DNA from: Octopus vulgaris
Lineage: Eukaryota
Length of the DNA stretch: 64,000 nt
Assembly (NCBI GenBank): GCA_951406725.2
Contig: OX597815.1
Coordinates: forward strand, 200,694,001 to 200,758,000
Direction: 5' to 3'
Shown here: piece by piece, positions 994-61,786 of the stretch
Layout of the letters: each line of letters begins with the position of its first letter
Numbering within the stretch: position 1 is the first letter of the stretch
The notes under the pieces: model-generated
What the model was told of the DNA's origin: nothing
Databases searched by the model: none
The model's input: the letters and a program-made list of their open reading frames with translations, nothing else
Made by a program: the position numbers and the translations under genes

Positions 994-2855
994 TTTATTT
1001 TTTAATTAACCACTAGGGTCAAAACACTGATGGGACAGCACAAGGACATACAAAACGAAGAAGAGGGGAAAAGAATAAAATCGAATTAATAATGAAAATA
1101 AGAATATATGAAAAGATGGAATGACGAACGATCGAGATCCACTCCCGAGCTGTCACATTGAACCATTAATTACTCACAATGTTCCAATGTCAAGCACTTT
1201 TCAAAAATCAATGAAACCACGTACTCCAAGATGTCGTTGTACTCCACTTCAAGAGGCAATGCATCTATGCACAACTCTCTGTATATATCGGTAATGTCCG
1301 GCCCGAATTTTTGTTTTAGTCTTTTGAAATCCCTTTCGTCCACCAGCACACACTTCAAATAGGCAGTAGAGTCTTCTAAATTTACCTTTATGGTAGACTT
1401 TAATCTTTAAATTTCTCTAACCAGTTTGCTGTTTCTTTAATCGCATGACAAATTTAATCTCTTTTTCCCTAGGTTTTGCGTGTGTTTCTGTGGAAACCAT
1501 TTTAGTATTAGTGGCGGATGGGGCTGGAAGGGGATTGGCATCTGATTTGGGAGGACTGGCTAAAGCGGGGATTGGAGGTACTGGAGCGGGGGTAGGGTGA
1601 GGACTGGAGTCTGGGTAATGAGCTCTTCCCCTTTCTTCTTCTTTTACCTTCTGTCACCGTCGACCAATCCTTGTTTTCTTTCTCTTGTTTCTCTATCTTT
1701 TATGTTCCTTCAGTCAGTGGAGGTGCTTTTACTTTTTCGCCGGGGCCAACTAGTGGTGTTAATACTGGTAATGGAGAACAGTCTGCTGTAATCTGAACTT
1801 TCTTACCTCACGTGAAACATTGCGGTCTCCTACCCACTACTTACACTCTCAATTGTCTGTCTTGGCCTATCCAAATGTTGTAAACTATGTTCTCTAGCAC
1901 TTCTGGGGGAGGCTTGGATAATCATTTCAATCCTTTGTTCTTGCCAGTTGCGTTGAGAGACTTTGATAATTCGAAGGACGGAGAATTTATCCTTTTCCCC
2001 ATTATAATAACTGCTACAATCCAGCCAACCTCCACGTCCAGCTGTATCTCCTTCACTCTTACCCTGGAAGCTCGTCTCCCAAGGTAAGTTGTGAGGAGCG
2101 CCACCTCTGCCGTATTTATGGAGACCATACAATAATACTTGACTCTTTCTTCTGTTTCGAACCGCACCTCCACTGTGGCGAACTTGCTTTCTCTCGTAAC
2201 GTATGTTATGTCTTTCCAAATGTATTTCAGACATGTTTATATTTCTTTCTTTCATACAATCTCTATCCTATTCTTTTTCCAAACACAAAGGTTTATACAA
2301 TAATACTTGGCTCTTTCTTCTGTTTCGAACCGCACCTCCACTGTGGCGAACTTGCTTTCTCTCGTAACGTATGTAATGTTTTCCAAATGTATTTCAGACA
2401 TGTTTATATTTCTTTCTTTGATACAATCTCTATCCTTTCTTTTTCCAAATACAAAGGTTTTGAACACAATTATTTCTTTTTCCACTCAATGGCTTACTTC
2501 CTTTGGCGGGCTCACCAGATTTCGTGCGCTTCTCTTTTTATTAAGTCTTTAAATTTCTCGAACTCTTCCTTACTTACTTTACCTCCTCTCACGAATTACC
2601 AGTCACTGCTGCAAAACTCTTTTCTCCCTTCACCTTGTCCATGCTATCAAAGCATCCAAACAATTCCTCCTGAGAGGACTCTAAGTCGGAATGCATCTAC
2701 ATAAAAACACAACGCTCTTCCCATTAAACCAGTGGAAAAATAAAGGTACCAATAACAGCATTTTTCAACATGATTTTCAAAAATAACACTAACTGTTGGG
2801 GAAAAAACTTCTACGTTATGGGACTAGCACGAACTCACTCGCCACGCGGGCAAAT
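994..2855 (-). mobile_element. Degenerate non-LTR retroelement carrying only a gag-like ORF1 (HAL1/L1-Tx1-like), A-rich 3' end
   Basis: Minus-strand frameshifted reading from ~2695 (MHSDLESSQEELF..KSFAAVTG) through ORF-track pieces 2252-2485, 1922-2173 and 1830-2255 to a decayed zinc knuckle GRRPQCFT*GKKVQITADC (~1780-1830), a Pro-rich tract and ORF 1170-1358. It ends in ..ccctagtggttaattaaaaaaataaa at ~994. No APE or RT was seen. Confidence 0.55.
2127..2460. repeat. Tandem duplication of ~167 bp within the ORF1 relic
   Basis: atacaataatactt..ttttccaaa(c/t)acaaaggttt occurs twice head-to-tail (2127-2294, 2295-2460). Confidence 0.9.
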
Positions 2856-3122
2856 AGTCTTCATAGTACAGGTTTAGCACTGGGGTCGATGTAATCGGCT
2901 TAATCCGTTTGTCTGTCCTTGTTTGTCCCCTCTTTGTTTAGCATCTTGTGGGTTGTAAAGAAATATATACTGTACCGTAAAAGTGCGCCAAAATCATAAC
3001 ACCTACGCTTTAAACAGTCACATGACCACAAAGGAATTAGCTTGTCTTCGCTAACAAAACCTGAGAGCGGTATTCGTACGAGCGGGAAGTTATCTGAATA
3101 TAATTTTTTTTCGTTCGTAATA

Positions 3123-3414
3123 TATATATTAGAAGAAATAAGGTACTCAGTAATCTGGATGGTTTTATATTTACATATTTTTTATTAATATGTCAGATGT
3201 TTTTATAAATCATATATTAACGCTTGCATCTACTCTTGTAGAATCTCCAAAATCTGAAGAACCTACTGAAGTAGATGCAAGCGTTAATATATAATATACA
3301 AAAACATGTGACATATTAAGAAAAATCTGTAAATATTAAACCGTCCAGATTTCTGAGTACCTTAATTCTTCTAATATATAATACCTGTACATCACCTCCA
3401 AACTTTCTAATATA
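3123..3414 (+). mobile_element. Diverged mini fold-back, PLE pseudo-LTR-like, with degenerate HHR-like core
   Basis: Imperfect inverted arms 3123-3234 and 3270-3380. CTGAAGA-acCTAC tgaa GTAGat-GCAAGCGTT at 3254-3285. Short unpaired tail and TA flanks. Confidence 0.65.
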
Positions 3415-4452
3415 TGTGTGTATGTGTGGGCGTGTGTGTATGTATGTATGTATGTATGTATGTATGTATTATGTATGTATGTATGTATTTATGCATGTAT
3501 GTATGTATGTATGTATATATGTATGTATGTATGTAGGTTGGTAGGTATGTAGGTAGGTAGGTAGGTAGGTAAGTAGGTAGGTAGGCGTGAATGTGCAGGC
3601 TGAATGGCTCAGCGGATTGTATGCTTCAATGAGTTCGTCTCCGCATATCGAGGCTATCAGTCATGTTTACAGTAAAACATGTAGCTCTGATTTGTTATCA
3701 AATTTGTCCAAGCTGAAAATTTAAAAAGAAATTAATAAGAAAGCCACTTCTTACTGATCACAGCAGGTCTAGAATGTCTTTCTATTCAGACAGGTGTAAT
3801 ACGGGGTGTTTATATAGCCTGGGCAGTCAATACTAGTATTTTCCCTGAATTTTTGTAAAATGTCTTAGCACCATTTACAGACGCGCTTAGTACATGATAC
3901 ATACACATACTCAGTTGTGAGCACACATTTGTGTATCTATCTATATCTTTATACATCCACGCACTAAGATATAAAAATACATATTCAAAGCTAACTAGTA
4001 TCTGAAAGTATTTCGGCGCCCACGAAAACCCGCCACCAGCGCAGGGATACTAATGTTATAGTAGGTTTTGATCATTGTTTAACCTAAGTGTGTTACACGC
4101 GTCCATCTACTTTGATCAGTAATAATATTATGATAGCTAGAAAAGGTAAAAACATAGTTATTCGGAACAAACAAAATAGTATTACAATGATTGGAAGGAT
4201 TAAGGAGAATAGTAATAATATTATTGTTAACTAATAGTGTTAAGATTCAACAACGTAATACTATTAGACACTGCAACACAAATACTGATCATGGTTTAAA
4301 ATTATATATTGTCTTCGTCTGATAACGTAGATAATGTTAAAAAGAACTCTCGCCGTGAATAGGAACAGACTCTCTAGCGTAAATCACAAAATGCGTCCAC
4401 ACAATACGTATAAACGAAATAAAGATTATTATGAATTGACAAATGTATGTTA

Positions 4453-4940: not shown

Positions 4941-5371
4941 ACTTAACATGAATTCAACACATTAGAAAGAACAGCTTAGGTTCTGTAAACCACAAAAATA
5001 ACGGATAAAATTGTTTAACCCTAGGTTGGATCTTGTTGAAGAAGATCAGACCTTGTGAGTTCCCCCTGACTCGCTAAAAGAAGATCAGAAACCAATTGGT
5101 CCAGGGTACTAGATGGTAAATGTTTTTCATTTCCAAATTTATTCCTGTCGTATTTTATCCGTTATTTTTGTGGTTTACAGAACCTAGCTGTTCTTTTTAA
5201 TGTGTTGAATTCCCGTTAAGTGAATTCCTAATGTGTATAAATATGCACTATTTCATATGACTAATATATAGTCTTCTTGACTAATTTTTTTTTGTACGGT
5301 AGACCACTGGAAATGTAAATTTTGATTGAATATTTTAATTTTAATTACATTCCATTTCCCTTCGATATGAT

Positions 5372-9473: not shown

Positions 9474-10069
9474 AGGCGTGTCCTTGTGGTACGAGAATTG
9501 GTTCTCAACTGCATGGAACCAGTGGCACCTTACGCGAGTATTTTCTACTATAGTCCTTGTGAGTGGATCTGGTAGATATATATATGTAATAAGCAGAAAA
9601 TGATCAGTAAAGAAATTGACTACCTTCCGTAATTATATTTTAATACAAAATTTTAACATGGCTTACAGCCGTTTCTTCAACGAATGTCAGACGGTGCCGA
9701 CTGACGTTGGTAGCAGAAACGGCTGTAATACAAAAAAACGTTTTGTAATTAAAAAATAAAAAAGGAACGATATTAATCGACGGTAGTCAATTTGTTTCAA
9801 GATGGAATGTTTTCTCCATTTTCTGCTTATTTGAAATTTGATTCCTGATAAACTCTTGTTTATTCTGTATCCTAAGACCAGATAATGCTTATATATCCAT
9901 GCCCAGGATTAACATAGGTAATTAATTCTAATAGTAATAACGGATATTCTTAATCCCTTAGACAGTTGCTCCAACCGCTAACTCTACTTACCTTTACACA
10001 CACTCACACACACACACGCGCGCGCGCACACACACATATATATACATATATACATACATACATACATAC

Positions 10070-11169: not shown

Positions 11170-11352
11170 ATTTATTATATAGAAGGAGCTTCTACAGGAC
11201 TAGAACTGTTTCATTCAAGAGAAATCTTCTCCTGAAGATTTCTCTTGAATGAAACAGTTCTAGTCCTGTAGAAGCTCCTTCTATATAATAAATTAATTTT
11301 ACTCTGCTATGTATTGAGTACCTTATTTACTGTGGTTAACCCCGAATCAACC
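11170..11352 (+). mobile_element. Perfect 60-bp-arm fold-back in (TA)n with HHR-like core and tail
   Basis: Arms 11170-11229 and 11234-11293 with a 4-nt loop. CTGAAGA-tTTC tctt GAAt-GAAAC at 11232-11255. ~60 bp tail, then (TA)n. Confidence 0.8.
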
Positions 11353-13438: not shown

Positions 13439-13612
13439 AGAGTGGTTGTATACTGTCAACTTAATGTGACAGTCCCGTATGGGAATTACATCACCGCTGT
13501 TTAGCCCTAGGAAGCATCTAACGCTTCCTGTCGATGCTTCCTCGGGCTAAACAGCGGTGGTGTAATTCCCATACGGGACTGTCACATTAAGTTGACAGTA
13601 TACAACCACTCT
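13439..13612. repeat. 80-bp-arm inverted repeat with 14-nt spacer
   Basis: Arms 13439-13518 and 13533-13612, two mismatches seen. Not flanked by TA repeats. Confidence 0.9.
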
Positions 13613-18210: not shown

Positions 18211-18486
18211 AATAAATATTAGGGAATGAATCCAAAATTACAGGGAAAAATCAGATTTAGGGTTAAATCCAATTTTATAGTAAAATATTATATAATATAA
18301 TTCGAGACAAAACCACTATTTTAAAACCAAACAAGGAAAGACTTAATCAATACATAAAATTTTAATATAAATTAAATAAATTAAATAAATAAATAATTTA
18401 TATTTATTTATATTTAATTTATATTAAAATTTTATGTATTGATTAAGTCTTTCCTTGTTTGGTTTTAAAATAGTGGTTTTGTCTCG

Positions 18487-18494
<8 letters not shown>
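18211..18494 (-). mobile_element. Mini fold-back in (TA)n (84-bp arms, tail on left)
   Basis: Arms 18295-18378 and 18411-18494, unpaired tail 18211-18294. Related to the solo copy at 25657. Confidence 0.75.
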
Positions 18495-18545
<51 letters not shown>

Positions 18546-19882: not shown

Positions 19883-19949
19883 TATAACGGGAAGCTTTAT
19901 GAAAATAAACAAAAGACGAAGGCAGGTGGAAAACAAACGAACAATTATA

Positions 19950-20038
<89 letters not shown>

Positions 20039-20075
20039 GATCAAAATAAAATAAAAACATGATGCGAAGGATTCA

Positions 20076-20153
20076 GCGGTACATATGTTTCGGGCCTTTA
20101 TTAGACAGATTTATAACAAAGCATAACGTATGTCTGTGGCCTTCTTCAGCCGC
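20076..20153 (-). ncRNA. Type I hammerhead ribozyme (left arm)
   Basis: Reverse complement of the motif at 24961-25038. Confidence 0.8.
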
Positions 20154-21873
20154 GCACAACAGCTTCCACAAGGACATGTGTTACATCAAAAATTCTTGGT
20201 TGGGGATGCAAATCCTCTCGTTCACGTACGACATAATGCGGCAGCAGCATAGAATTGAAGCGTCCATCTCTTTCCTCTCTCAATGTAGAATGAGGAAAAT
20301 TGGATGTTGAGGTAATGTAAATAAATAAATACATATATAGAGGTGAAGATGGAGGGGCGAGAGTTCGGGACGAGGGATAAAAAATATATATAAAAAGTGT
20401 AAGTATAGAATAATATAAAAATGTAGAGGATAAAGATATAAAGAGTTGTAAGGAGATGTAAAGGGGGTATAAAGAAATATAAAGAAATATAAATAAATGT
20501 AAAGGCATAAGGTTATAAAGTAAAAATAGAAATAGAAATAAAAGTAAAAAAAGTAAAAGAACATGATAAAAACATGATAAAAGTGTAAAAGAATGTAAAG
20601 ATAAGGGATGTATAGAGGTTACGGACCAAGCATGGTGGTCAGGAGATTGATAAAATTTAGTTGTAGAACTGTCAGTAAATCAACAGTTTTGTCTGGGGAC
20701 TTAATGCGTTGTAAATCAGAGCTGATGAGCATTTAATCTGGTTCCTTGAATTAAATGGACTTCTAGTACATACATGTCATCATGGATACATACACCCACA
20801 TACACGCGTACATATACGTCTCCAAGCCTATAAGCATACACACGCACTCGCGTGTAAACACGTACATAAACACACACGCACCCACACGCACGCGCGTACA
20901 CACACATACATACAACAGAATATCCGCATATATACACGGACATTACGCGCGTACACGCTCACATGTATATACGCGCGCCCATCACTACATACACACACGT
21001 ATATGCCCACGCCTCTAGGTCTAGGTATAAGATATTAAAGGATGTGTATAAGAACGTATGTAAAGAATCCCGTACTCGTGTTAATACGCGCACGCACACA
21101 CGGCTGTGTGTCCGTATGTGCGTGCACATATACACTCATATACACACACAGAGACACACGCGCACATGGGTATAGCTATAAGATATCGAAGTATGCATGT
21201 ACATATATGCGCGTGCATATGTATGTATGCGTATACACACGTACGCGGACGCTCGTATATTCAAAAGGTGGATCCATAGGTAAGTAAATAAACATATATA
21301 GAGGTGTAAAGCGATAAGTTAGGGGTAAGAATGAGGGTAAGGGTAAAGATTAGAAATAAAAAATACAGTATAAAATAAGAAATACAATGTAATAGTTAGA
21401 AATGAAATATAAGAATTATAAAAATTATAAGAGTTAAGGTAAGGGATGAAAATGAAAATGAGAATAAATGGAAGTAGAATAAAAGCAAAAATAAAAATAA
21501 AATTAAAGATAAAAATAAATGGAAGTAGGATAAAAGTAAAAATAAAAGTAAAAATAAAAATAAGAATAAAATAAAATAAGATAAAAATATAAATTTGTAA
21601 AGTTTAACATGAGATGAAGGTGGTTGAAAGCTAGAGGTGTGTGTTAAACGTAGGGGCGGGCGGGGGGAACTGAAAATTGGAAGGGTGGGAAGTGGAGTTT
21701 GGTGGTGTGCGTTCAACATCTGAGTTAGAAATGTGAAAGGGTATAGATATGGGGAATCAAAGAGACTACATAGGGAGGATATGGGTGTAGGAGAAGGAAT
21801 ATTTAGGGAAAAGAAGCCATATATGGGAGACAAAATTTGTATATATAGGGGGAAAATGCAGGGAACCGTATAT

Positions 21874-21928
<55 letters not shown>

Positions 21929-22086
21929 TATATATATATATGTATATGTACACATACTTACACGTATGTGCACATACATACGCACACACACACACATACA
22001 CACGCACATATAGGAAAGCGGGATGTGCTGGAGCCGACAGGTTGCACCGGGTGGGAGGAAATTGCATGGGGGAGTTGGTATAAGAC

Positions 22087-23241
22087 CTAAGCATTGTAGT
22101 ATTTGAAAGTATTAATAAGTTTATGTATACAGGATGGTTTGAACTCTGACCTTTTGTTAATAAGATTGTGTTTGTCTTTGAATTTCAAGATGTTCAGGAG
22201 TTCTACACAGCATAGTTGGCATCCTGCTCTATTATTTAAATAAGGTGCAGCTGATCCGATGATGGACCATCTGAGTTTGAAGCCTATGCATTTGTCTTTT
22301 AATTCCCAAATTCTTTTAGAGAGGGAGGTGCTGTTAGCCTTATGTCTATGTCTCAGCGAGGACCGGTGGTTGTAGTATCTGGATTTCCAGGAGGTTGAGC
22401 AACCAATATAGGTGAGTGTGTTAAACTGAGTACTCACCTCACATGAGTATATTACGTTTTTCGCCCTACATGCGCCCTGCAGCGGGCACTCTGATGCATA
22501 TCTGCAGTTGCATTGCATTGCATTATTCGGTCGTGTGCTGCTAATCCCAGGTGGAGGTGTTGCAATACGAGTGGGGGCGTTGGTATCCTCCTGGTTGTTG
22601 ATGGGTGTAGTATTTCCTCTGTTGTGTTGGCGGGTGTTATTACTAACTGTTTGGGTAGTATGGCTGCCAGTCTGGTTATATTGTCTACTGTCTAGATGAG
22701 GGGGGTTCTGTTGGTCGCTATGGTTTGCTCTTGATCTAGCTGTTCTAATATTAATATAGTTATGTTTAGCTATGAGGCAGCTCATGTTGGGCAGGGTAGA
22801 GTAGGAAATCCTAATAGTTTTGTTGGAGAAGATACTTCTATACTTGTGGGTGGGTGGGAAGTTGTTGGAAATTATAGAGAATATTCTCTTACATAACTTA
22901 CCCCTAACTGCTAGGTTGAAAGGTATGTTGAACCATATATATTTGCGTAATCTACTATTATCCCTTCTATTTCTCCTAATAGGATCTATATTGCTCTCGT
23001 CGGGAGGGTTACTATTGTGTGCTGTTCTATTAGTTCGCCTATTTCCTATACGTTGTTTGGAGTTTGAATTAGACTTATCGGTAGTGTGAGTTGAGTGCTG
23101 AGTTCGATTATAATTGGGAGTCTTATGGCCGAAGGACGCTCCCGGTTGGTCTACATATGATATTCTCTGGTTATACCCTGCACTATAGAGGGCCTGGTTG
23201 TAGTGTTGTGCATGTGTGTGTGTGGGTGTGTGTATGTGCAT
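22087..23241 (-). CDS. 5'-truncated PLE polyprotein: end of RT thumb, linker with CxCx5C, and GIY-YIG endonuclease
   Basis: YNQALYSAGY; RKYIWFNIPF..FPPTHKYRSIF..ISYSTLPN; CNCRYASECPLQGAC; VIY..YIG; RYYNH; CQLC.VE; LINKRSE..CIH. No RT core. The ATG comes from the inverted arm. Confidence 0.88.
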   Translation of the reverse strand: MHIHTPTHTHAQHYNQALYSAGYNQRISYVDQPGASFGHKTPNYNRTQHSTHTTDKSNSNSKQRIGNRRTNRTAHNSNPPDESNIDPIRRNRRDNSRLRKYIWFNIPFNLAVRGKLCKRIFSIISNNFPPTHKYRSIFSNKTIRISYSTLPNMSCLIAKHNYINIRTARSRANHSDQQNPPHLDSRQYNQTGSHTTQTVSNNTRQHNRGNTTPINNQEDTNAPTRIATPPPGISSTRPNNAMQCNCRYASECPLQGACRAKNVIYSCEVSTQFNTLTYIGCSTSWKSRYYNHRSSLRHRHKANSTSLSKRIWELKDKCIGFKLRWSIIGSAAPYLNNRAGCQLCCVELLNILKFKDKHNLINKRSEFKPSCIHKLINTFKYYNA

Positions 23242-24960
23242 ATACGGTTCCCTGCATTTTCCCCCTATATATACAAATTTTGTCTCCCATATATGGCTTC
23301 TTTTCCCTAAATATTCCTTCTCCTACACCCATATCCTCCCTATGTAGTCTCTTTGATTCCCCATATCTATACCCTTTCACATTTCTAACTCAGATGTTGA
23401 ACGCACACCACCAAACTCCACTTCCCACCCTTCCAATTTTCAGTTCCCCCCTGCCCGCCCCTACGTTTAACACACACCTCTAGCTTTCAACCACCTTCAT
23501 CTCATGTTAAACTTTACAAATTTATATTTTTATCTTATTTTATTTTATTCTTATTTTTATTTTTACTTTTATTTTTACTTTTATCCTACTTCCATTTATT
23601 TTTATCTTTAATTTTTATTTTTATTTTTGCTTTTATTCTACTTCCATTTATTCTCATTTTCATTTTCATCCCTTACCTTAACTCTTATAATTTTTATAAT
23701 TCTTATATTTCATTTCTAACTATTACATTGTATTTCTTATTTTATACTGTATTTTTTATTTCTAATCTTTACCCTTACCCTCATTCTTACCCCTAACTTA
23801 TCGCTTTACACCTCTATATATGTTTATTTACTTACCTATGGATCCACCTTTTGAATATACGAGCGTCCGCGTACGTGTGTATACGCATACATACATATGC
23901 ACGCGCATATATGTACATGCATACTTCGATATCTTATAGCTATACCCATGTGCGCGTGTGTCTCTGTGTGTGTATATGAGTGTATATGTGCACGCACATA
24001 CGGACACACAGCCGTGTGTGCGTGCGCATATTAACACGAGTACGGGATTCTTTACATACGTTCTTATACACATCCTTTAATATCTTATACCTAGACCTAG
24101 AGGCGTGGGCATATACGTGTGTGTATGTAGTGATGGGCGCGCGTATATACATGTGAGCGTGTACGCGCGTAATGTCCGTGTATATATGCGGATATTCTGT
24201 TGTATGTATGTGTGTGTACGCGCGTGCGTGTGGGTGCGTGTGTGTTTATGTACGTGTTTACACGCGAGTGCGTGTGTATGCTTATAGGCTTGGAGACGTA
24301 TATGTACGCGTGTATGTGGGTGTATGTATCCATGATGACATGTATGTACTAGAAGTCCATTTAATTCAAGGAACCAGATTAAATGCTCATCAGCTCTGAT
24401 TTACAACGCATTAAGTCCCCAGACAAAACTGTTGATTTACTGACAGTTCTACAACTAAATTTTATCAATCTCCTGACCACCATGCTTGGTCCGTAACCTC
24501 TATACATCCCTTATCTTTACATTCTTTTACACTTTTATCATGTTTTTATCATGTTCTTTTACTTTTTTTACTTTTATTTCTATTTCTATTTTTACTTTAT
24601 AACCTTATGCCTTTACATTTATCTATATTTCTTTATATTTCTTTATACCCCCTTTACATCTCCTTACAACTCTTTATATCTTTATCCTCTACATTTTTAT
24701 ATTATTCTATACTTACAATTTTTATATATATTTTTATCCCTCGTCCCGAACTCTCGCCCCTCCATCTTCACCTCTATATATGTATTTATTTATTTACATT
24801 ACCTCAACATCCAATTTTCCTCATTCTACATTGAGAGAGGAAAGAGATGGACGCTTCAATTCTATGCTGCTGCCGCATTATGTCGTACGTGAACGAGAGG
24901 ATTTGCATCCCCAACCAAGAATTTTTGATGTAACACATGTCCTTGTGGAAGCTGTTGTGC

Positions 24961-25038
24961 GCGGCTGAAGAAGGCCACAGACATACATTATGCTTTGTTA
25001 TAAATCTGTCTAATAAAGGCCCGAAACATATGTACCGC
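24961..25038 (+). ncRNA. Type I hammerhead ribozyme (right arm)
   Basis: GCGG CTGAAGA a-GGCC..GGCC-c GAAA CATAT GTA CCGC. Stem I GCGG/CCGC, intact core, palindromic stem III ACATATGT, GUA triplet. Confidence 0.82.
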
Positions 25039-25234
25039 TGAATCCTTCGCATCATGTTTTTATTTTATTTTGATCAATTTACTCCACCACCTACACCACC
25101 AAACGGTATACACAGGTGCTTATAATTATCAAGTACTCACCCTGAATTTCTATACTCAACTCACCTACGTTGTCACTAGGATCTGATCCCACGTAACCGC
25201 GACAACCTTTAGTACTTGATGAACCCAAGCATGA

Positions 25235-25267
<33 letters not shown>

Positions 25268-25593
25268 TACATATTGGTACTAGCGGCGTAGCTCTGGTTT
25301 AAAATGCCATAGTTCTGTCTATTGTTTTAATTGTTACTAATATGTGACAGAGGACATACAGGTTCATCGCCTTTCGTTGAAGAAATCCATCCAGGATTTA
25401 TTCTTTGTAAGCCTAGTATGTATTCTACCGGAGTGTTTTGTCAAATGACTAAGTTACGGGGACTTAACTCAGCAGCATCGGTTGTCAAGCGTTAGTGATG
25501 TTACACACAGAGATACAGACACTCGCACACACACAGCATATATGTATGCGTATATATATATATATATATATACACACACATACATATACATAT

Positions 25594-38289: not shown

Positions 38290-39050
38290 TTTACTCTAAG
38301 AACAAGGGCCGAAATATTGGAGGAGGGGGCCATTAGATTAGATTGAATTCAGTACGCAACTGGTACTTAATTTATCGACCCCAAAAGGATGAAAGGCAAA
38401 GTCGACCTCGGAAGAATTTGAACTTAGAACGTAAAAACAGACAAAATACCTATTTCTATTTCTTTACTACCCACAAGGGGCTAAACACAGAGAGGACAAA
38501 CAAGGACAGACAAACGGATTAAGTCGGTTATATCGACCCCAGTGCGTAACTGGTACTTATTTAATTGACATCGAAAATATGAAGTGCAAAGTCTAGCTCG
38601 GTGGAATTTGAGCTCAGAACGTAGTGGCAGACGAAATACCTATTTCTTTACAAGGGGCTAAACACAGAGAGGACAAACAAGGACAGACAAACGTATTAAG
38701 TCGATTATATCGACCCCAGTGCGTAACTGGTACTTAATTTATCGACGCCGAAAGGATGAAAGGCAAAGTCGACCTCGGCGGAATTCGAACACAGAACACA
38801 GCGGCATACGAAATACCTACTTATTTACTACCCACAAGGGGCTAAACACAGAGAGGACAAACAAGGACAGATACATGGATTAAGTCGATTATATCGACCC
38901 CAGTGCGTAACTGGTACTTATTTAATCGATCCCGAAAGGATGAAAGGCAAAGACGACCTCGGCGGAATTTGAGCTCGGAACTTAACGGCGGACGAAATAC
39001 CGCTAAGCATTTTGCCCGATGTGCTAATGCCTCGGACAAGTCACCGCCTT
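38290..39050 (-). mobile_element. Tandem array of four SINE family B units
   Basis: ~180-190 bp units repeating aactggtactta..atcgac..gaaaggatgaaaggcaaag; a single 5' head at 39050. Confidence 0.88.
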
Positions 39051-45900: not shown

Positions 45901-47009
45901 CTCGTGAGCTGATACGGGTTGGTATTTTAATATCATATCTCCATATTCTTTTAGCGCTCCATATCCGAGATATTAGCAGTCATGTGGCAAAGGCGAAAGA
46001 ACTTCTTTATCTTATCCTAGTATCCTCGTTTCAGCATACAACTTGTTAGCCAACTTGTTATTGGAAGCAGAAGAATAGCTATGAATCAATTATTGCTAGG
46101 ATGTAACAGCTGCATGTACATACAACGGCATAACCGTAATTCATCTTCTACTTTTGTCTTCATCTGAAGTGAGAGGATTAAAGCCCATGCCATATGCCTA
46201 ATACATGGTTAGATCTCCTTGTTATGTTGCCAGAGTAACACGTAAAATGATGTTTCGAAGAGCGTAGGTATGAACGGACAGCCTTGCTTGGTGTCTTTCT
46301 GGCAATAAAATACACATAATACTGCATCTTGTATTTTCTGAGCACAGCGTCCCCTGTTTTCTCTCCGACACTCCCTTTCACCATCGTACTAACGGCATTA
46401 CTATGTTGTCTCCCTCTGTTCTAGACTCATTACACTCCATTGTACCATTCGTCTTCGAAGTATCATATCATGCATTACATTTCTGGTGAGCATTCACGGT
46501 GTAAAGAGTAATGTAAAGGGGTCCCTGTGAACTATTGAAAATGCGTAAGTGACGTCGATGAAAGCGACGCAATTACGTTATTCTTATGCTGGTGATGGGC
46601 GTGGCTTGTATTTGCTGTTGTCATTTTATTTGGGATAACACACAGAGTTAGGAATATGTGGTCTTTACACCGTGAATGCTCACCAAAATTGTAAGGTATC
46701 ATATCATACTTCGAAGACAAGCATAGCACTAGTTCAGTCTACCTTCCAGGGATTCGACAAATTCAAAATAATAGAAAATTAATGCAAATATCTACAAAAC
46801 AGGGAGCGATCAAAAAGGAAATATATCCACAGTTCTGAAACACTTAGAGATTACATACGTTAGAACTTGTACTAACACTCTGGAATGCTAAGAGAAAAAA
46901 TATGTTAATATTATGCCCTAGAAGAGACCTTTCAGAGTAACATAAGTACCGTACTCTGAGATATGTCCATAAAAAAATATAAAACCCTTCCAACCAAAAT
47001 GTCATCTGA

Positions 47010-53814: not shown

Positions 53815-54435
53815 ATTCTTAACTATGTATAAGTTCTTTGTGGTGTGTTTCACGATCGCTACTTATATTCTTTGCCCGATGTTTTAGGCACTGAGCAATC
53901 CCTCTCTTTACACTGTATGGATGGTGGGAATTGAAGTTGAGGTATCGTCCAGTAAAGGTCGTCTTGCGGTATACGGATGTTCTGAATCCATACTTGGTGA
54001 GCATTATTAATACGTCCAGGAGTGCCAGATGATTGTCTTTCTTTCCTTTTCCATTGTGAACTGAATGGATGGCTTTATTGAGTTTACCTGATCGAACAGA
54101 ACATGGACATCTTCCTGGTGGAGCCAGAGTATAAAGATGTCCAAGTGCTGTTAGAACATGTGAATTCAATAAAGTCATCCATGCAGTTCACAATGGAAAA
54201 GGAAAAAGACAATCAGCAGGCATTCCTGGACGCATTAATAGCACGCACCAAGTGTCGAAAAATACCTTAGGAATGAGAATCCAGGTTCGAAATTTCCCCA
54301 AAACACCTGATGAAGGCTGGAGGGTATATCAGCCGAAACGTTGTGTTAACAACAAGCAAGATGAGGACAAATATCTGTCAAATGTAAATAATGTAAATAA
54401 CGTACATAATCCCTCATCTCTTAAATATAGAACTG
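53815..54435. mobile_element. Rearranged Penelope/Poseidon-type element: inverted RT fragments plus pseudo-LTR with HHR
   Basis: Minus 53819-54085: DNHLALLDVLI..FRTSVYRKTTFTGRYLNFNSHHPYSVKRGIAQCLKHRA. Plus 54103-54251: DIFLV..DVQVLLEHVNSIKSSMQFTMEKEKDNQQAFLDALIART. Then an HHR region. Confidence 0.85.
54302..54347 (+). ncRNA. Minimal type I hammerhead ribozyme
   Basis: AACAC CTGATGA a-GGCTG gagggtatat CAGCC GAAAC GTT GTGTT. 5-bp stem I, 5-bp stem II, palindromic AACGTT stem III. Confidence 0.82.
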
Positions 54436-60637: not shown

Positions 60638-61135
60638 AGTTTAAATTTATTGCAAAACAAGACAAAGACAGGTGTATGAACAACAAGCAAGTGTATTTGT
60701 TTGACGCTTGAGAAAAATGATAAAGTCTTTTACGTTTCGTGCATACGCTCTTCAACAGAAAGCAATAGGAGAAGATAAACAGTGAGAGGGAAAACAATGT
60801 AGATTTCAGTGGTCCAGCATGGAGTATTAACTAATAGTAGGATATGAATTTCGCATAAGACTTTCATTACAAACAACATATGTTTCGATCCATCAATCTC
60901 AGTATCTTCTGGTACATTGATAAAGAGACAGATGGGTGGAAACGTATGTTGTACCTAATAAATGTCTATTATGAAATCCTTCTCCTACTATTAATTAATA
61001 CGATTACCCTAACTGCCACTGCAAAGTTCCTGAAATACATCCAACAGAAGAGTACCAAAACTGCGAATAACAGCAAGTAGCATAAAGTGCACTGATAGTC
61101 TACTCAACATTTAAACGCACTAATCGACTTACACC

Positions 61136-61211
<76 letters not shown>

Positions 61212-61391
61212 CATTATAATAATAATTATTATTATTATATACATACATACATGCATATATATATATGTATGTATGCATATGTATATATACATACAGTTTC
61301 TCCCTCATGCTGTTTATCTTCCCTTATTTCTTTATGCTGAAGAGCGTATGCTCGAAACGTAAAATACATTATCGTTTTTCTCACACGTCAA

Positions 61392-61393
<2 letters not shown>
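60638..61393 (-). mobile_element. Inverted pair of PLE pseudo-LTR-like copies, each with an HHR-like motif
   Basis: 60700-60795 (minus) is homologous to 61296-61393 (plus). Motif (C/T)TGAAGAGCGTATGC(T/A)CGAAACGTAAAA at ~60725-60760 and ~61337-61364. Confidence 0.7.
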
Positions 61394-61444
<51 letters not shown>

Positions 61445-61451
<7 letters not shown>

Positions 61452-61786
61452 AAATATTAGAGAGTCAACTTTGAATATGTTAACTCTAGTATGTAATCTG
61501 CATTTTGTTAATGAAGAAACAATTGTACAACATTAATCCATTATTTAGTAGTAGTTTAATTTCATAGCGTTGATTGTGGTGCTATTTCTATGTGGATTTA
61601 TCGTCGGCGACTTTTACCGATCGGACCTATTTCTAGCACTAGAGTTAACATATTCAAAGTTGACTCTCTAATATTTACGGATAAATATGAATTTGTGTCC
61701 CCGGTTTTTTGTGCTAGGTCGCTTGGTGTTAAAATAAGGGTATTATTGAATTAATATCTATAATTTTATTCACCCTCATTATTTAA
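61445..61786 (+). mobile_element. Mini fold-back in (TA)n, 46-bp perfect arms, 3' half of an HHR
   Basis: Arms 61445-61490 and 61638-61683. GAAAC AATT GTA at 61516-61527. The tail resembles the reverse complement of 19607-19660. Confidence 0.75.

Follow-up and report, generated by a model that had tools for sequence, protein, structure and literature searches.

One-sided tails on the fold-back insertions of a young Penelope-like family with Hydra-clade motifs in Octopus vulgaris

How a retroelement comes to lie in the genome as two head-to-head copies of itself, and why only one end of such an insertion carries a tail, is the question raised by a fold-back at positions 20035-25235 of a 64,000 nt stretch of Octopus vulgaris DNA (assembly GCA_951406725.2, contig OX597815.1, forward-strand positions 200,694,001 to 200,758,000), hereafter the window. 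The locus is a dead, 5'-truncated, non-autonomous copy of a young Penelope-like element (PLE) family with Hydra-clade motifs. As a single object it is ordinary, a real new Hydra-type family member in an already published arrangement, and the interest is carried by a family-wide rule that one end of each fold-back is tailed and the other is not. The origin of PLE inverted copies and of the tail is still debated, the proposals being self-priming on antisense RNA, resolution by the endonuclease (EN), or none (PMC3846280; PMC8557442; PMC11167929), and a young family with at least 561 tailed ends holds hundreds of recorded integration events. Literature searches turned up no statement of such a rule in strict form, and none of twin priming in PLEs. 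The two copies were, we believe, probably primed simultaneously on one RNA from both nicked strands of the (TA)n target.

The inverted arms, at 20035-21906 on the minus strand and 23207-25079 on the plus strand, align over 1,872 and 1,873 nt with 99.4% identity, seven substitutions, of which three lie in the inner CA tract, plus three one-base indels, all in homopolymer runs; a preliminary description of the window had given them as 1.86 kb. A chance origin of a 1.87-kb inverted match at this identity is far excluded. The loop between the arms is 1,300 nt. Only the right side extends beyond its arm, by 156 nt (25080-25235, plus strand), in agreement with the tail of about 155 bp first noted, and (TA)n adjoins both outer ends, at 19956-20034 to the left of the tail-less 3' end and at 25236-25274 to the right of the tailed 3' end (from the sequence and Tandem Repeats Finder, TRF). 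The left arm is the 3' untranslated region (UTR) of the longer copy, the 3' end of which is the tail-less start site A, ending ...GATCAATT. This copy continues through the remaining, single-copy 3' UTR with its CA and TA microsatellites (21907-22086, minus strand) into a 5'-truncated open reading frame (ORF; 22087-23206, minus strand), which corresponds to about amino acids 462-836 of the 836 in the family protein and comprises the end of the reverse transcriptase (RT) thumb, two low-complexity inserts, a linker, the endonuclease and the stop. The right arm is a second, shorter, inverted copy consisting of 3' UTR only. The two 5'-truncated copies meet head to head within the CA tract at 23204-23212, with about 2 nt of microhomology. 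The tail is the family 5' UTR, unit positions 1-156, and stops two bases beyond the ATG at 25231-25233. Because the truncated copy, beginning at about amino acid 462, has lost the RT core with YRDD (amino acid 357) and the start codon, it is not autonomous.

The genome was searched with the last 157 amino acids of the window endonuclease, giving at least 150 matches, many of them 98-99% identical. The family sample consists of 120 loci, 6.5-10 kb each, of which 84 were picked through an EN match and 36 through a tail match, together with 20 small loci. Fold-backs make up 40 of the 84 EN-selected loci, so the arrangement is ordinary for the family. Exact-pattern counts gave 561 tailed ends and 662 tail-less matches, some of the latter counted twice, with 0 matches to the reversed-pattern controls. 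Pairs were analyzed from the first 100 places of each pattern over their shared range, contig C1 and most of C2, which holds 99 tailed and 81 tail-less ends. The 50 outward-facing pairs found there range in length from 60 bp up to 8 kb, with a median of 0.67 kb and nine pairs of at least 4 kb, and every one combines a tailed end (T) with a tail-less end (N): 28 TN, 22 NT, 0 TT and 0 NN (p about 9e-16), whereas independent tailing would give about half mixed pairs. The EN-selected set, which has seven loci in common with the outward pairs, obeys the rule in 31 of 33 resolved fold-backs; seven more have an incomplete arm. In agreement with the rule, six of 62 'monomers' have a short inverted remnant, in each case of the complementary type. 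The one-tail rule excludes independent site choice.

Which arm is tailed does not depend visibly on its length, the longer arm carrying the tail in 16 and the shorter arm in 15 of the 31 EN-selected fold-backs, with the tailed arm the shorter in 10 of 15 miniature fold-backs (minis) of the family. The tail is mostly 70-88 nt; a tail of 156 nt is rare. Two further loci, L152 and L127, also have an end at the ATG. Inheritance of tail length from source lineages was rejected, as tail state does not follow the family tree (38 changes against 34 when shuffled).

A common origin of the two arms is evident from their sequence. Of 50 fold-backs compared, seven were too short or unmatched and six mini comparisons were left out, their query having crossed the palindrome, leaving 37. 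A fold-back's own second arm was its closest sequence in 27 of these, and it ranked in the top 10% in every one of the 37. In the window the arms differ by 0.25%, the next copy by 0.88% and the median copy by 3.05%. Outside the inner CA tract they show four substitutions, or 0.22% between arms and 0.11% per arm, of which three are private and one is a recurrent CpG-type change (9/124); derivation of the arms from two subfamilies was rejected on this basis. Gene conversion between arms was not detected: 23 private nonsynonymous changes were observed against 27.9 expected from half the arm divergence, and the unduplicated ORF carries 0.20% private nonsynonymous change against a half arm divergence of 0.19%. 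As private ORF changes equal half the arm divergence, the arms were identical at insertion and were not homogenised later, so that arm divergence can serve for PLE insertions as a clock like that of long terminal repeats (LTRs). With a rate of 0.0036 substitutions per million years (PMC13282606), the four substitutions date the window insertion to about 0.3 million years (Poisson range 0.08-0.8), an upper bound since sequencing errors are also counted as differences. Editing of the template RNA by ADAR was rejected, the private changes being 70 A>G against 75 T>C, with no A>G excess.

Two further observations bear on the template. The fold-back at C4:23.559 Mb has the same novel deletion junction in both arms. 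In minis the two arms stop within a median of 12 nt of each other (n=15, permutation p 0.0002). The first of these loci (L145-L147, C4:23,559,1xx-23,559,7xx) is a fold-back of a 240-nt deleted unit, made of the hammerhead 3' flank and unit positions 1-195, which is repeated within each arm; one end is tailed and the other is not. Such a pattern might come from copying around a small circle or from several template jumps in succession.

From these data we infer the following priming scheme. An RT-EN protein, probably a dimer, as is predicted for the Poseidon protein (PMC11167929), would nick both strands of the (TA)n target. One 3'-OH would start a complementary DNA (cDNA) at site A, where the 3' UTR ends, 46 nt beyond the point of hammerhead cleavage. 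The second 3'-OH would start another cDNA at site B in the 5' UTR that follows, usually at +70 to +88 and here at +156. With the cDNAs starting at A and B respectively, the sequence from A to B would be found on one arm only. Both would stop independently, and their unfinished ends would then be joined through short stretches of microhomology or with a few extra bases; the 49 junctions examined have overlaps of at least 2 nt (19) or of 1 nt (8), are blunt (6) or contain added bases (16). The anole Poseidon protein nicks and extends both strands in vitro, and its reverse transcription starts at two sites bounding the tail without a need for hammerhead cleavage (Frangieh et al. 2024; PMC11167929).

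Several points weigh against this scheme. Two of the 33 resolved fold-backs are exceptions to the rule, one with two tails (L033) and one with none (L043). Fifty-six of the 62 'monomers' have no inverted remnant. Five old cases in other families gave mixed results for the one-tail rule. The in vitro work concerns a Poseidon element and covers nicking, extension and start sites, and its main text does not discuss inverted copies (PMC11167929). The near-symmetric stops of minis are expected from a snap-back as well. Finally, ends A and B each come directly after an AATTT, a motif with no other occurrence from unit position -150 to +390, and because the anole endonuclease prefers 5'-ATT-3' (PMC11167929), trimming of DNA could also set these ends. 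As to the exception with two tails (C10:27.04 Mb), at least 200 nt of flank are identical on each side of it, as after a secondary inversion or an assembly artefact.

Trimming is the core of the 'EN-mediated resolution' that Craig et al. 2021 favour as the origin of the tail (PMC8557442), whereby the initial product is a symmetric or hairpin intermediate, from which the endonuclease later trims one end and so removes one tail. The AATTT motifs speak for it. However, if the two ends were trimmed independently, TT and NN pairs should occur, and they number 0 of 50; the adjacent tail-to-tail junction expected of a circular intermediate was not seen (two inward-facing pairs are separate insertions), and both tail boundaries are RT start sites in vitro (PMC11167929). 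We regard this explanation as unlikely.

Self-priming is less likely again. Here the inverted arm is made by copying a folded-back molecule, either the initial cDNA or, as Arkhipova et al. 2013 hypothesised (PMC3846280), an antisense RNA. This would account for arms that are nearly identical and have private variants in common, for the near-symmetric junctions of minis and for the 19 of 49 junctions with at least 2 nt of microhomology. A copied arm cannot, however, contain sequence missing from the first arm. At the window locus and in 15 of the 31 EN-selected fold-backs the shorter arm is tailed while the longer arm has extra ORF, and because the tail sits on the shorter arm, a simple snap-back is excluded for about half of the fold-backs.

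Two RNA molecules from one source locus, one per protomer and with site choice coupled by the geometry of the protein, would explain both the rule and the near-identity of the arms, provided that most transcripts of the cell come from a single locus, and the palindromic helix III of the hammerhead would allow RNA-RNA pairing (PMC4209133). Yet the rare deletion junction common to both arms at C4:23.559 Mb and the nearly equal 5' stops of mini arms are simplest with one molecule, and two independent RNAs are unlikely because TT and NN pairs would be expected; we think the two-molecule explanation quite improbable. An assembly or chimeric-read artefact is barely credible: in the short contigs of four sequencing runs the family is at high depth and no junction of this fold-back is bridged, and the locus with two tails shows that whole-flank palindromes are present in the assembly, but the flanks here are unique and not inverted, the tail is on one arm only, the arms have private substitutions, and 50 loci across two contigs are laid out in the same way.

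With twin priming on one RNA preferred, we lean, with some hesitation, to the wider view that PLEs integrate by obligate twin priming, in which one ribonucleoprotein makes two cDNAs on a single RNA, one per nicked strand, so that inverted pseudo-LTRs (pLTRs), the one-sided tail and minis would be one phenomenon. Minis would arise where twin priming takes place at the 5' pLTR junction of the RNA itself, so that the two cDNAs run off at a start site near unit position 4151. Of 33 5' ends between unit positions 3400 and 4189, 18 fall in 4140-4170, on the motif TCATTC; this set was tail-selected, and starts beyond 4189 are excluded by the selection. In the window copy this motif, at unit position 4151 and so at the family 5'-end hotspot, lies at 20288-20293 (minus strand) in the left arm and at 24821-24826 (plus strand) in the right arm. 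By comparison with the Drosophila consensus it is a candidate initiator-like motif.

A single RNA containing ORF, 3' UTR and the first 156 nt of the 5' UTR was needed for the window insertion. Its pre-ATG segment has 18 exact matches in the genome, and at all of them except the window's own arm the family sequence upstream reaches no further than about unit position 2608. Since none of the matches has the arrangement needed, the source would be a tandem locus that is absent from the assembly or mutated in the pattern, or else a circularised RNA; the matches give only a hint as to which. That long copies such as this one derive from hammerhead-cut, circularised RNA is possible but in our opinion doubtful. 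The template RNA was either uncleaved or re-ligated, as both arms continue through the hammerhead cut site. One rare 5' UTR allele of the window tail also occurs at L061 (C2:132.25 Mb), a copy in which unit positions 1103-4072 are deleted and the inverted partner is the tail alone.

The full-length, RT-containing copies anticipated in the preliminary description were recovered among the family loci. The natural full-length unit is 4.4-4.7 kb, with a 151-nt 5' UTR, an 836-amino-acid ORF and a 3' UTR of 1.7-2.05 kb, the hammerhead cut site lying 46 nt before the 3' UTR end. Four loci (L021-L024) have the 836-amino-acid ORF with both RT and GIY-YIG endonuclease, and among 11 loci checked it is complete and open in 4. 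In the model of the whole protein the RT is nearest to TERT (E 5e-9), and there are two disordered inserts, at amino acids 491-544 and 637-691. A telomerase-like RT and a GIY-YIG endonuclease predicted in one ORF identify the family as an EN-containing PLE, and other PLE hallmarks are present, namely partial tandem (pLTR) or inverted copies, the tail and the hammerhead inside the repeat. In three full-length copies on different contigs (L021, L062 and L064) the upstream pLTR begins at unit position 3941. Three tail-less family ends at C1:57,296,985-57,313,301 are spaced by 8.15 kb, probably through local tandem duplication.

Recent activity, supposed earlier from the near-identity of the arms, is borne out by the many copies at 98-99% identity and by shared ORF variants, for which the ratio of nonsynonymous to synonymous polymorphism (pN/pS) is 0.12, a sign of purifying selection, against 0.50 for singletons; this difference indicates that several source copies were active. 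The preliminary description also had an unusually long, microsatellite-rich pLTR or 3' UTR of about 2 kb. The length stands, at 2,052 nt against 1.1-3.0 kb for entire published Hydra consensuses (PMC8557442); 350 nt lie within TRF arrays and much of the remainder is low-complexity. The arm is not a fixed 2-kb pLTR, being a second 5'-truncated copy of a length that is variable across the family.

An endonuclease in the loop had likewise been proposed, and the stop-free frame at 22087-23206 encodes it at 22090-22455 (minus strand). The last 143 amino acids are predicted to fold like I-TevI (Z 9.1, root-mean-square deviation 2.4 Å, 90 residues aligned), the nearest structures being I-TevI, T4 EndoII and UvrC. 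VIY...YIG, R, H, E and N are invariant in 87 sequences, and CxxC and CxH flank E and N. Pfam gave no match with the 411-amino-acid frame and GIY-YIG at E 0.054 only with the last 157 amino acids, and a PDB search with a sequence profile gave 0 matches. Foldseek matched the endonuclease at E 0.1, with GIY-YIG in all of the top 11 matches.

Each arm contains an intact hammerhead core, as had been noted, of the form GCGG-CUGAAGA-helix II-GAAAC-AUAU-GUA-CCGC. The type I hammerheads occupy 20076-20153 (minus strand, core at 20149, cleavage predicted from the consensus after 20080) and 24961-25038 (plus strand, core at 24965, cleavage predicted after 25034). Helix I has 4 bp and CUGAAGA comes next; helix II is long, its base carrying a bulge or mismatch, and after GAAA there is a helix III that is palindromic and minimal. 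This layout matches the dimer-type form of animal PLE hammerheads (PMC4209133); the irregularity at the base of helix II also occurs in several published Hydra hammerheads (PMC8557442). The core segments are identical in 143 hammerheads of the family, and rarer variants accompany them among the top 12 listed. Because Rfam at gathering thresholds gave no match, the assignment is made from motif layout and the identical family cores. Folding of 24940-25236 was uninformative (z -0.74), the hammerhead not forming in free folding, as is usual for the dimer type. In the window copy the hammerhead appears to be a passenger.

Elsewhere in the window no homology to the element was found beyond microsatellites. 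The mini fold-backs of the window, which the preliminary description had tied to a PLE parent, have no sequence in common with the element and belong to other families; same-family minis are present elsewhere in the genome. A head-to-head pair of another hammerhead family lies at 60694-61398, with cores at 60755 (minus) and 61337 (plus); its left end extends about 115 nt beyond the right, and its right end abuts (TA)n. Hammerhead-like cores of unrelated families occur at 11180-11290, 54307 and 5036, one in a short palindrome, one after an imperfect palindrome (53992-54253) and one in a fold-back (4942-5220). Short inverted repeats at 3123-3380, 9625-9767, 13439-13612, 18285-18506, 46451-46718 and 61448-61680 are not homologous to the element, and several abut (TA)n on one side. 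Directly left of the element, at 19884-19955, is a 70-nt piece of another repeat with (TA)n on both sides, which may be a tail-only insertion; a similar piece adjoins a hammerhead-like core upstream of L021. A 184-bp unit in 3.5 tandem copies (38350-39001) is presumably akin to a short interspersed element.

The Hydra clade is defined by DKT, RWK, CxCx5C, loss of CCHH, CxxC/CxH, a hammerhead and (TA)n targets (PMC8557442), and the resemblance to it suggested earlier holds for CxCx5C, DKT, the C-terminal endonuclease and the (TA)n target. The linker is CNCRCASEC at amino acids 696-704 (CxCx5C in 111 of the 120 top homologues); in the window copy, at 22486-22512 (minus strand), it reads CNCRYASEC, where full-length copies shown have C in place of Y. 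DKT is found as ADKT at amino acids 125-128 (105/120), and RWA at 39-41 stands where Hydra has RWK (RW[KR] in 113/120). The endonuclease has CxxC in CQLCCVE and CxH in CIH, and by eye its alignment lacks CCHH. By eye, too, the RT motifs agree with the published Hydra alignment, and the spacing of motifs A and B (59 amino acids against 60 in Hydra-1_Obim) leaves no room for an insertion-in-fingers domain. A canonical hammerhead and the (TA)n insertion bias are both present. The nearest database proteins are about 30-44% identical and have the same motifs. Membership of Neptune, Nematis or Penelope-Poseidon was rejected, as DKG, CCHH in the endonuclease and a Cx2-5CxxC linker (or none) are not what the family has. 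A non-LTR retrozyme, consisting of non-coding tandem units with a hammerhead in each (10.64898/2026.07.22.740005), was also rejected, the copies here being inverted rather than tandem and containing ORF sequence.

In its single ORF, C-terminal GIY-YIG, DKT, CxCx5C, hammerhead near the 3' end and (TA)n target the family is like the Hydra clade of Craig et al. 2021 (PMC8557442). It differs from Hydra-1_Obim, an octopus family already in the literature, in its protein (836 amino acids with two disordered inserts, against 709), in the RWA in place of RWK, and in its size, the unit of 4.4-4.7 kb with a 3' UTR of 1.7-2.05 kb comparing with 2.5 kb (PMC8557442). This size and the different hammerhead sequence make the two distinct families. 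An inverted 5'-truncated copy is attached to Penelope-13_HM, also of the Hydra clade (PMC8557442), and published inverted-pLTR Penelope insertions have, as here, a head-to-head 5'-truncated copy and a tail on one inverted end that runs into the 5' end of the next unit. Their tails, however, are 30-40 bp and called optional, whereas those of the octopus family are 70-88 nt (156 in the window copy) and obligate on exactly one fold-back end (PMC3846280; PMC8557442). Poseidon_Ac (Frangieh et al. 2024) has in common with the family an AT-rich target and two RT start sites bounding the tail; nicking and extension of both strands without a need for hammerhead cleavage, observed in vitro there, would be a further likeness. 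The Poseidon_Ac start sites are inside the ORF and those of the octopus family in the 5' UTR, and the 1-4 nt matches to the target at most octopus ends are a further contrast (PMC11167929).

The arms of the octopus fold-backs duplicate each other because the primers would start only about 70-150 nt apart. In the twin priming of L1 that Ostertag and Kazazian reportedly described in 2001, a single RNA is primed twice, and the resulting inversion has a microhomology junction. The segment that is inverted there comes from another region of the RNA, further upstream, unlike the duplicated arms found here.

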